Positions 39,175 through 42,042 of a stretch of DNA of 64,000 nt are shown piece after piece (within the stretch, counting starts at the first letter, position 1; the number at the start of each line of letters is the position of its first letter). The notes under the pieces were generated by a model that saw only the letters and a program-made list of their open reading frames with translations, was not told where the DNA came from and made no database searches. Origin of the DNA: Nostoc sp. DedSLP01 (GTDB lineage: Bacteria; Cyanobacteriota; Cyanobacteriia; Cyanobacteriales; Nostocaceae); NCBI GenBank assembly GCA_034530875.2, contig JAVRCJ020000009.1, forward strand, positions 1 through 64,000. The letters are read 5' to 3'. A program made the translations under genes and the position numbers.

Positions 39175-39606
39175 ATGAGGAAAGCGGGCGAAATTCGGGT
39201 ATTAGCTTTAGGATTAATTCGAGACGGCGAACGCATTTTTGTTTCTGAAGGTTACGACCCTGCAAAGCAAGAAATATTTTATCGGGCTTTAGGTGGCGGT
39301 GTTGAGTTTGGTGAAACTAGCTCCGAAGCGCTAAAACGTGAGTTTCAAGAGGAAATTCAGGCAGAGTTAACGAATATTCGCTATTTGGGTTGTATCGAAA
39401 ATTTGTTTATCTTCAACGGTAGGCAAGGTCACGAAATTATTCAACTTTATCAATGTGATTTTGCCGATCCTAAGTTTTATAAATTAGAAAGTTTAGTTTT
39501 TTCTGAATCAGGAAAACATAAACATAGGGCTTTATGGATTGAAATTTCACGCTTTGTTTCTCGAGAGCTAAAATTAGTCCCAGAAGTCTTTTTTCAATAT
39601 TTATAA
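39175..39606 (+). CDS. NUDIX hydrolase
   Basis: GGGVEFGETSSEALKREFQEE Nudix box. Confidence 0.92.
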   Translation: MRKAGEIRVLALGLIRDGERIFVSEGYDPAKQEIFYRALGGGVEFGETSSEALKREFQEEIQAELTNIRYLGCIENLFIFNGRQGHEIIQLYQCDFADPKFYKLESLVFSESGKHKHRALWIEISRFVSRELKLVPEVFFQYL

Positions 39607-39650: not shown

Positions 39651-39983
39651 CTAATCATACCTATTCTTTTTGGATTTAATTACTTCTATCGCGTCATCAT
39701 GTCTGTGACCTTCGATGATATCTTTTAAATGAATTTTCCCTTCAATATACTGGAGATGGATGCGCCATCCAGATATTTTGTCTATATCTGCACGATATAT
39801 TGCTTGTTTAATACCTTTTACTTTATGCAGTCTTGTTTTCGGAAAAGTTCTGGTTCTATGGCATTCATTATCTTCTAGTTCAGCCAAAGCTTCTAAAAAT
39901 TCAATTTTCAGGTCTTTTGGTAAAATCTTCATCGCTTCATAAATAACACCATATTCATCTAAAAGAGGCTTAATCTGTGACAT
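39651..39983 (-). CDS. Putative RelE/ParE-superfamily protein
   Basis: RLHKVKG..IYRADI..GWRI..IHLKDI..HDD resembles RelE-family mRNases. AT-rich. Confidence 0.5.
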   Translation of the reverse strand: MSQIKPLLDEYGVIYEAMKILPKDLKIEFLEALAELEDNECHRTRTFPKTRLHKVKGIKQAIYRADIDKISGWRIHLQYIEGKIHLKDIIEGHRHDDAIEVIKSKKNRYD

Positions 39984-40369
39984 TAGCTTGAATGAACCCC
40001 AATTTCTTGATGTTCGATGCTAAAGTCTTCATAAAGAGAATCTGCAACTGAAATATATGCGGCTAATGCATCTTCAGCCTTTACAGTTCTAAATAAGGTT
40101 ATTACCGTTCTATCAAAAATTGGATCGTCATCAATAGTCAGTATTATTCTGATATCTTTATCAATTTTCAAAGAATAAAGAGAGGAATCATAATTAGTAT
40201 TAAGTTTAATATTGTTAAATTTTACAGCATAACGATCTAAGATTTTTTTATTTTTAGACATTAATTCAATATATTGATTTAACTTTTTAATAATATTAAA
40301 CTTTTGTTTATTATTAAAATATTCTAAATCTTGTTCAAATTCTTTTGTGGATTCAATAAGTATTTCCAT
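39983..40369 (-). CDS. Putative divergent RelE/ParE-superfamily protein
   Basis: MEILIESTKEFEQDL and LYSLKIDKDIRIIL..VITLFR. TAATG overlap with the downstream gene. AT-rich. Confidence 0.5.
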   Translation of the reverse strand: MEILIESTKEFEQDLEYFNNKQKFNIIKKLNQYIELMSKNKKILDRYAVKFNNIKLNTNYDSSLYSLKIDKDIRIILTIDDDPIFDRTVITLFRTVKAEDALAAYISVADSLYEDFSIEHQEIGVHSS

Positions 40370-40605
40370 TCACTGGCTCCTAAATCGAAAATCCAACTTA
40401 CTTCAATTTAGCTTACAGCTATAGATAATTGAAGTATCCGAAGTACGGTTATTGCGAAAAAATAAATTATAGCAATATAGTGGTAAGTCAAGTATATAAA
40501 TTGGTCGCTGGAAGGAAAGCGATCGCTATTCAGAAATCTGTTGAAAAGAACTTGTAGTAATCAGCGATCGTCTTTAACATCACAACTGATTTGAAAGTAA
40601 AATCT

Positions 40606-42042
40606 ATGCCAGCTAAATTATCGTCATCTATATTCATAGTTCTATGCGGATTAGCTATAACTCAAACCCTTGGATGCACAAACCGTAACGATAATTCAGC
40701 GATCGCTCAAACTTCACCCCAGCCAACTGCCCAAGAAATTGTTCAATCAGGCGAAGTTCGGGCTTTACCAGGCAAATTAGACACAATACCCGTCTTTAAC
40801 AGCAATAGCCCAGAATGGATTAAAACGGAGGGTATTTTACTTTCTACCTTTCCCAGCAAAGGAAAAAAATTTCCAGCAGCGCACCTCAATTTCCCTTTCC
40901 AAGGACGCTTTGACTTATTCGCTCATCACTACACCCACACTCCCAAGGACTTAAAAACGCTATACCTGGGCGTAATTGTGCATAATCCTGGTAAAAAAGC
41001 TGTAGCAGTAGATGTATTGCAAGCTGCGAGTTATTTAATGCAGGATGCGCCCTTTATCACTTTACCTCCTTACATTGACAATAACGATGGTAAGACTTAC
41101 TCAGGCCCGGGTGCCCGCACTGTTGCTGATGTACTCCGAGGCGTCCGACAAGCCGATTTTCCCGCGACACTGATAATTCCCCCAGGACAAAGCCGGATGT
41201 TGCTAAATCATCCTATCCCTGTAAGAAATCTAGAAAAACCAGTGAATGGTCGGTCTACCTTTATGCGGCTGCGTAGTAGCGATGCAGTTTATGCAGCAAG
41301 TTTGGCGATGTTTGCCAAGAAAAATCCTGATGGAAGCGAGATGCCGTCCGGCACGCTTCGCGAACGCGCACCGACTCTCACAGAATGGCAAGCTTTACTA
41401 GATAATGGTAACTTTGCTGGCCCGCGAGATAAAACACCAACTCCTCCAAACGCTACCGGTGGCGCGCTGATTTACGGACGGGTTGCTGGCGTATCTCAAG
41501 GTTCCCAATGGCAAGCCAAACTGGTCGATAATCCCCAAGCTTCAAATCTGACTATTCCCCAGCGCGGCAAAGCTATTTCTTATCCTATAGTTACACTGCG
41601 GGGTGGGCGATTGGGTACTGACCAAATCCAAACAGCCAAGATGCTGGTACGCTATCCCGATACAGCATACGAAGCACACGGCAATTACGGTATCGAATAT
41701 AAGCTGACTTTACCTTTAAGTAATAACACTGTCCAAAATCAAACCGTCGCTGTTACCTTAGAAACACCTTTAAAAGAAGATAAATTATCCCAAGGAGGTC
41801 TGCGTTTCCGCAAACCATCCCTAGCTTTTCCCTTCTTCCGTGGTACAGTGCGGCTACGTTATTTCGATGACCAAGGCGAACAAAAAATCCGCTACGTGCA
41901 TTTATGGCACAGAACTGGGCAGGTATTAGAACCATTAGTGCAACTTACACTTCTACCCTCGACTAAGCGTATAGTACACGTAGATGTGATTTATCCGCCA
42001 GATTCAACGCCACCACACGTGTTGAGCGTGAAAACTCTGTAA
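40606..42042 (+). CDS. DUF3370 family exported lipoprotein
   Basis: TLGC lipobox, VRALPGKLD..FNSNSPE..GILLSTFP, YGRVAGVS, AHGNYG and YPPDSTPP. Confidence 0.82.
   Translation: MPAKLSSSIFIVLCGLAITQTLGCTNRNDNSAIAQTSPQPTAQEIVQSGEVRALPGKLDTIPVFNSNSPEWIKTEGILLSTFPSKGKKFPAAHLNFPFQGRFDLFAHHYTHTPKDLKTLYLGVIVHNPGKKAVAVDVLQAASYLMQDAPFITLPPYIDNNDGKTYSGPGARTVADVLRGVRQADFPATLIIPPGQSRMLLNHPIPVRNLEKPVNGRSTFMRLRSSDAVYAASLAMFAKKNPDGSEMPSGTLRERAPTLTEWQALLDNGNFAGPRDKTPTPPNATGGALIYGRVAGVSQGSQWQAKLVDNPQASNLTIPQRGKAISYPIVTLRGGRLGTDQIQTAKMLVRYPDTAYEAHGNYGIEYKLTLPLSNNTVQNQTVAVTLETPLKEDKLSQGGLRFRKPSLAFPFFRGTVRLRYFDDQGEQKIRYVHLWHRTGQVLEPLVQLTLLPSTKRIVHVDVIYPPDSTPPHVLSVKTL

Follow-up and report, generated by a model that had tools for sequence, protein, structure and literature searches.

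The RelE/ParE proteins are among the largest superfamilies of toxins; they act by ribosome-dependent cleavage of mRNA or, in the case of ParE, by inhibiting gyrase, and their known antitoxins are DNA-binding proteins of unrelated folds. YeeU (CbeA) is a type IV antitoxin, and its toxin, CbtA, is not known to have the RelE fold or to be bound by YeeU. In the VapWD system, VapW, an inactive homologue of VapD, is a proven antitoxin which leaves the catalytic cleft open; its authors call the system unique and mention YeeU and HigA-HigB (Gilep et al. 2025, PMC11980593).

The window considered here, a stretch of 64,000 nucleotides from Nostoc sp. DedSLP01 (contig JAVRCJ020000009.1, positions 1 to 64,000), carries two adjacent genes, A and B, for which we put the probability at about 0.65 that they form a type II toxin-antitoxin (TA) pair, the antitoxin A being a degenerate RelE-fold protein and the toxin B being of the RelE type. 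Like VapW, A combines a toxin fold with an apparent loss of catalytic residues (R74 and R94 are kept). The fold is however that of RelE and not that of VapD/Cas2, and while VapW is detectably homologous to VapD, A and B share no detectable sequence homology. VapW moreover mimics a contact of the VapD oligomer, whereas the predicted A-B interface is not symmetric. Unlike YeeU, the RelE-fold A is predicted to bind the RelE-fold toxin directly. The pair resembles RelBE, YefM-YoeB, DinJ-YafQ, HigBA and ParDE in that B has the toxin fold with conserved basic and histidine residues in what appears to be the expected region, and in that the genes form a small coupled operon with an antitoxin-first order. 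It differs from these systems by having no RHH, HTH, Phd/YefM or AbrB antitoxin and no conserved operator, by scores below every Pfam and NCBIfam cut-off for both proteins, and by the partner of B having itself the RelE fold, and it is not a member of any of them. Our literature searches did not turn up a pair of this RelE-RelE kind, and none appears in the text covered of a survey of RelE/ParE toxins (PMC11980606), a 2026 preprint on BECR classification (10.64898/2026.08.28.747851) and a 2009 census (PMC2701414), whose supplements could list these families. A and B are a real, conserved two-gene family, which is apparently undescribed.

Organisation, linkage and genomic setting

Both genes are on the reverse strand. 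Gene A (39983..40369, 128 aa) is followed by gene B (39651..39983, 110 aa) through a TAATG stop/start overlap for translational coupling (39981..39985, reverse strand), base 39983 being common to both frames, as had been described in the first-pass annotation. This one-base overlap is found in 20 of 83 non-redundant relatives, and the spacing in the others is mostly between -26 and +36. Each gene is present in a single copy in this genome. The pair is flanked by a NUDIX gene (39175-39606, PF00293) and a DUF3370 gene (40591-42042, PF11850), and the only other open reading frames of at least 45 aa in this interval are two antisense frames inside B (49 and 60 aa), which are not conserved (of 84 relatives, 32 have the one and 12 the other open over at least 45 aa). 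The AT-richness noted earlier corresponds to a GC content of 28.7% for the pair, against 40.9% for the genome, and an equally low value is reached by 0.6% of 11,852 segments of 719 bp. The unit is also free of HIP1 sites, as stated, but this is uninformative on its own, since 52% of the 719-bp segments have none; a depletion becomes apparent over 30-odd non-redundant cyanobacterial loci, with 0.17 sites per kb in the DNA of the pair (4 sites in 23.7 kb) and 0.92 per kb in the flanks.

The homologues of the two genes do co-occur. A search with B gave 139 genome loci in GTDB, and in 79 of the best 80 an intact A directly precedes B. The same holds for 76 of the best 80 of 270 metagenome loci; of the four misses, two fall at the end of a contig, and A is broken or deleted in the other two. 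The pair is thus a conserved, translationally coupled two-gene operon, as in type II TA systems, and no third gene is conserved among the 80 genome loci or among the metagenome loci. A gene family of about 186 aa, which looks to us like Uma2, is seen at 17 of the 80 genome loci (within L003-L082), mostly right downstream of B and on the opposite strand. At six metagenome loci with a GC content of 52-63% (L151, L164, L168, L172, L174 and L177), A carries a conserved N-terminal extension, of about 200 aa in complete copies (about 330 aa in total), for which Pfam, PHROG and PADLOC gave no match. In these proteins, the RelE part is further degenerate, the D-E-D-P-x-F motif is kept, and B follows directly.

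The first-pass annotation had described the unit as inserted between the NUDIX and DUF3370 genes. The flanks are correct, but a recent insertion is not supported by the flanking genes that relatives have in common: 50 of the 80 genome loci have at least one of NUDIX, DUF3531 and DUF3370 next to the pair, and 17 match on both sides. The pair has therefore long occupied this site in the Nostocaceae. In whole-genome samples from the phylum of the window, of which the order and family samples overlap, the spread of B is patchy (30 of 301 phylum genomes, 57 of 401 order genomes and 109 of 291 family genomes). Anabaena PCC 7120 carries the pair as BAB72393.1 and BAB72392.1.

Copies are also found on mobile elements. 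A conjugative plasmid of Anaerococcus, pAPRE01, carries the pair within its transfer region (L114:4995-8339), between virD4 and ssb and just after a 77-aa frame resembling part of VirD4, the position of this frame suggesting that the pair was inserted as cargo. An IMG/VR contig (L112:1-8177) has it in a prophage cargo region, between Lamassu LmuB, an amidase and AbiH; two overlapping reverse-strand frames of 309 and 273 aa adjoin the pair there, with no match in Pfam or PADLOC. A search with B in 50,697 phage records gave no match.

These settings bear on the earlier proposal of a phage-triggered ribonuclease or defence module. If the pair served mainly in anti-phage abortive infection, a phage factor releasing or activating B, the mechanism would be compatible with the TA reading, but a location in defence islands would be predicted. 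The patchy distribution (30/301 cyanobacterial genomes), the cargo position in a conjugative element, the prophage copy amid LmuB, lysis genes and AbiH, and two copies of which one adjoins HEC-02 and the other is near McrBC are in favour of such a role, and RelE-family toxins have been argued to act in defence (PMC11980606). However, neither PADLOC nor PHROG gives a real match, the Nostocaceae pair sits stably among housekeeping genes, and the neighbours are mostly housekeeping genes also at the 28 loci that were scanned, which are the more divergent or unusual ones. Only the three copies with LmuB and AbiH, HEC-02 or McrBC are near defence genes, and the remaining 25 have none, which does not support an enrichment in defence islands. 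With neither a defence-model match nor an island context, the pair does not have the marks of a known anti-phage system, and we consider a mainly anti-phage role quite improbable.

Fold, family assignment and conserved residues

The AlphaFold2 models of A (pLDDT 81) and B (pLDDT 84) both have the RelE topology. In the VIA structural search (48,161 chains), the best match of A was RelE from T. thermophilus (Z 9.9, rmsd 2.7, 89 aligned residues) and that of B was a toxin from S. pneumoniae which we take to be HigB (Z 10.3, rmsd 2.6, 97 aligned residues). RelE, YoeB, YafQ, HigB and ParE toxins head the match lists of both proteins, and the top 22 rows for B are all RelE/HigB/YafQ/YoeB/ParE-type toxins or Cami1. 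Foldseek is in line with this, with an E-value of 3.9e-4 for B (archaeal RelE) and of 1.0e-3 for A, just beyond the 0.001 mark of the tool, and the ESM Atlas concurs with a RelE-like fold for both, with a TM-score of 0.85 between A and a ParE cluster. The RelE-like character which had been read from the two sequences is confirmed by these matches, and both proteins belong by fold to the RelE/ParE (BECR, RelE-like) superfamily.

Sequence comparison is less telling, as neither protein matches a family above cut-off in searches of Pfam, NCBIfam, PADLOC, PHROG and the PDB sequences. For A, there are matches below the cut-off to YafQ (17 bits, cut-off 30) and YoeB (13 bits, cut-off 27), at E-values of 0.007-0.09, while for the 84 B members, a limit as loose as E 0.05 still gives no toxin family. 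Matches of B to PP2A and to restriction enzymes were discarded as short helical chance matches, the PADLOC restriction enzyme reaching only 15 bits against a model of 1136 positions. When the profiles of A and B (trimmed alignments) were compared with each other, hhalign gave a probability of 0.1%, below that of column-shuffled controls, and the best E-value in the HMM cross-search was 0.16. Since the profiles align no better than shuffled controls, they give no backing to an origin of the pair by duplication, and two RelE subfamilies may instead have come together.

The two proteins are conserved to different degrees. Over 83 non-redundant pairs, identity to the query is 63-91% for B (40% for one degenerate copy) and 17-70% for A, and over 137 close pairs dN/dS is 0.07 for B against 0.21 for A, indicating purifying selection on both. 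Near-invariant residues in B are R64 (81/84), R74 (83/84), K87 (78/84), D88 (84/84), H95 (83/84) and D96 (83/84), together with K69. R64 and R74 presumably correspond to K52 and R61 of RelE. Toxins of this superfamily have catalytic basic, histidine and acidic residues on strands 2-4 and in the C-terminal segment; those conserved in B correspond exactly to none of the known active-site types, and it is only the end offset of an alignment that places H95 close to the general acid. The equivalences between A or B and the toxins are indeed end offsets of three structural alignments, and not superpositions. The general acids known for these toxins are R81 in RelE, H83 in YoeB and H87 in YafQ (PMC5027501). 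Their position falls on residue 98 of A in all three alignments and on residues 92-95 of B. Residue 98 of A is an alanine here and a histidine in 29 of 84 members, whereas H95 of B is kept in 83 of 84. Position 98 is thus variable in A, as are positions 66 and 68, where the commonest residue is found in 23 and 34 members, respectively, while R74 (68/84) and R94 (80/84) are retained. Judging from these alignments, A appears degenerate rather than stripped, and with R74 and R94 kept and a histidine at position 98 in a third of the members, it may not be dead everywhere.

The net charge of the core is negative in 65 of 84 A members and positive in 66 of 84 B members. A has neither the conserved acid/base residues nor the basic ribosome-binding surface that would be looked for in an active RelE-type RNase. 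This bears on whether the roles could be reversed, with A as the toxin, encoded first like the toxin of higBA, and B as its antitoxin, and on whether the two could be unrelated solo toxins. The weak YafQ/YoeB matches belong to A and not to B, and some JGI records label A as YoeB, YafQ or RelE, as would suit such an assignment. The catalytic positions are however fixed in B and vary in A, and the mostly negative cores of A contrast with the ribosome-dependent RelE toxins, which are basic (PMC7180214).

Predicted complex and natural gene loss

The prediction of an A-B complex, as had been proposed for checking the pair, gave a score of 0.76, while the best of three controls scored 0.01. From run to run, at least 88% of the contacts are the same, out of about 100, and the pLDDT of the partners is at least 82. 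Of 157 solved complexes, 116 reach the mark applied, as do 2 of 215 mismatched pairs, counts which are only rough for custom alignments. The model supports, as a prediction, direct binding of A to B, and this predicted binding also speaks against reversed roles or unrelated toxins. The predicted interface consists of residues 2-12, 59-64, 78-93 and 111-116 of A and residues 52-63 and 98-110 of B. It is negatively charged on A in all 84 members and positively charged on B in 83 of 84. Conservation in A is 0.67 at the interface and 0.46 elsewhere, and of the 15 residues that are best conserved in it, 10 belong to the interface, although the complex model was given the same alignments and the two observations are not independent. 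In B, conservation is not biased toward the interface, and R64, K69, R74, K87, D88, H95 and D96 are all outside it, so that the catalytic-type residues are left uncovered. Residues 54-63 of B form the loop that precedes the first core strand, and this loop corresponds to the one that carries K43 and L44 in RelE, which contact the decoding centre (PMC11980606).

Natural losses of one gene or the other were counted in the order and family samples. In the order sample (401 genomes), A is found in 67 genomes and B in 57, all of which also have A. An intact A is accompanied by an absent, truncated, nonsense or frameshifted B in 11 places of 10 genomes, one of these A copies having an altered motif, while the reverse, an intact B with an interrupted A, is seen in one genome (G091). 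In the family sample (291 genomes), A is found in 107 and B in 109, the surplus B matches being fragments, and two more places with an intact A and a broken B are added, as well as one case of B without a whole A (G621). In total, an intact A without a working B is found in 13 places of 12 genomes, against a near-intact B with a broken A in 2 genomes, an asymmetry with a two-sided binomial probability of 0.007, which is overstated since the genomes include related kin. With the L120 lineage added, it becomes 13 to 3 (p 0.02). In three genomes (G056, G543, G583), the apparent stop in A is simply where a protein of 124 aa ends, and these copies were counted as intact. The count leaves aside places where both genes are broken, single-gene fragments, G848 (where the pair is probably split over two contig ends and B has a late stop), G229, G558 and G597 (intact A, open but degenerate B), and the metagenome loci L117 and L120, which were found by a B-only search. 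At the loci of the three genomes last named before these (L110 in G229, L215 in G597 and L218 in G558), the strongly diverged B beside the intact A lacks R64, R74 and H95. Three related genomes have in common a B match which ends at residue 26, with stops in A that differ between them, from which it follows that B was lost first.

The persistence of an intact A without B in 13 places indicates that A alone is tolerated, which counts against A as a toxin. Taken together with the residues, the charges and the predicted binding, this leaves reversed roles or two solo toxins very improbable. The rarity of B alone is as expected of a toxin, although three lineages count against its strict lethality. 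In G091 (L232), B is intact, and a tandem repeat with a period of about 70 bases breaks up A, whose last 95 codons, which include the predicted binding motifs, stay open. In the G621/L060/L117 lineage, A is interrupted and B has the changes P48S and H53Y at conserved sites, with a short truncation in G621. In L120, A is deleted and the stop of B is lost.

These lineages, in which B seems intact without a whole A, would also suit an obligate heterodimeric ribonuclease that stress or phage would activate, with A as a scaffold or gating subunit needed for the folding or activity of B, like the second subunit of YoeB. The large predicted interface of about 100 contacts with the catalytic-type residues of B left free, the near-perfect linkage of the two genes and the N-terminal extension of A at six metagenome loci agree with this possibility, and YoeB is called an obligate dimer in the title of Pavelich 2019 (cited in PMC7180214). 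Two genes that were each of no use alone should however decay equally often, and the observed 13 to 2 counts against A as a required activator, including in the two-subunit phage-triggered ribonuclease envisaged in the first-pass annotation. The acidic face of A moreover covers the basic surface of B. We regard the heterodimer as unlikely.

Regulation, proposed mode of action and significance

None of the open reading frames in the window encodes an RHH, HTH, Phd/YefM or AbrB antitoxin, and the 84 A members have no Pfam match to one. With no conserved third gene at the 80 genome loci either, the earlier observation that no HTH/RHH antitoxin adjoins the pair holds. An RNA antitoxin was also considered and rejected, Rfam giving only a 16-bit snoRNA match (E 0.6) and the antisense frames not being conserved. 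Upstream of A, a candidate -10 hexamer, TAAGCT, is located 46 nt before the start (40410..40415, reverse strand), and of 73 upstream regions, 30 have a hexamer of the form TA[ACT]G[CT]T, a pattern picked by eye post hoc, at -35 to -62, compared with 6.6% of shuffled sequences. The candidate promoter is surrounded by a perfect 10-bp inverted repeat (40399..40436, arms 40399-40408 and 40427-40436), recognisable in only four of the 73 upstream regions, three close relatives among them, and it was rejected as a general operator. An unconserved repeat is consistent with there being no autorepression.

The TA reading, in which a degenerate RelE fold neutralises an active one as had first been suggested, is supported indirectly by the folds, the co-occurrence, the predicted complex, the charges, the conservation and the asymmetric loss, from which we infer that A is likely the antitoxin and B likely the toxin. 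B, by its fold and conserved residues, likely cleaves mRNA as a RelE-type toxin. A, which is likely catalytically degenerate, is predicted to bind B and would neutralise it. In the predicted 1:1 complex, the acidic strand 1 of A, its S62-S63 loop, the hairpin with the DDPIF motif (D80-x-D82-P83-x-F85) and Y113 grip the basic loop 54-63 and the C-terminal helix 98-110 of B. Because this loop corresponds to the decoding-centre loop of RelE and the catalytic-type residues stay uncovered, A would bar B from the ribosome sterically rather than plug its active site. Such blocking in the model, which would not cover the active site, resembles what has been proposed for HigA-HigB (PMC11980593). With no DNA-binding domain in either protein, there would be no autorepression of the classical kind, and the module would fire by the loss or displacement of A.

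A more speculative reading, which we consider doubtful, is that A is a decoy sensor as well as an antitoxin: whatever attacks or sequesters RelE-fold toxins, be it a phage inhibitor or a protease, would strike A and thereby free B, and the helical extension of A at the six metagenome loci would be an added sensing module. If this were true, the pair would be a guard/decoy circuit that uses one toxin fold twice and works without transcriptional autoregulation.

If the TA reading is true, the pair would follow VapWD as a second case in which a toxin fold also serves as the antidote, and would be the first that we found in the RelE/ParE superfamily. It would also mean that automatic annotation gives the name of a YoeB/YafQ toxin to the likely antitoxin and leaves the likely toxin as a hypothetical protein. 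Since Anabaena PCC 7120 has the pair, the predicted toxicity of B, its rescue by A and the trigger of the module are directly testable.
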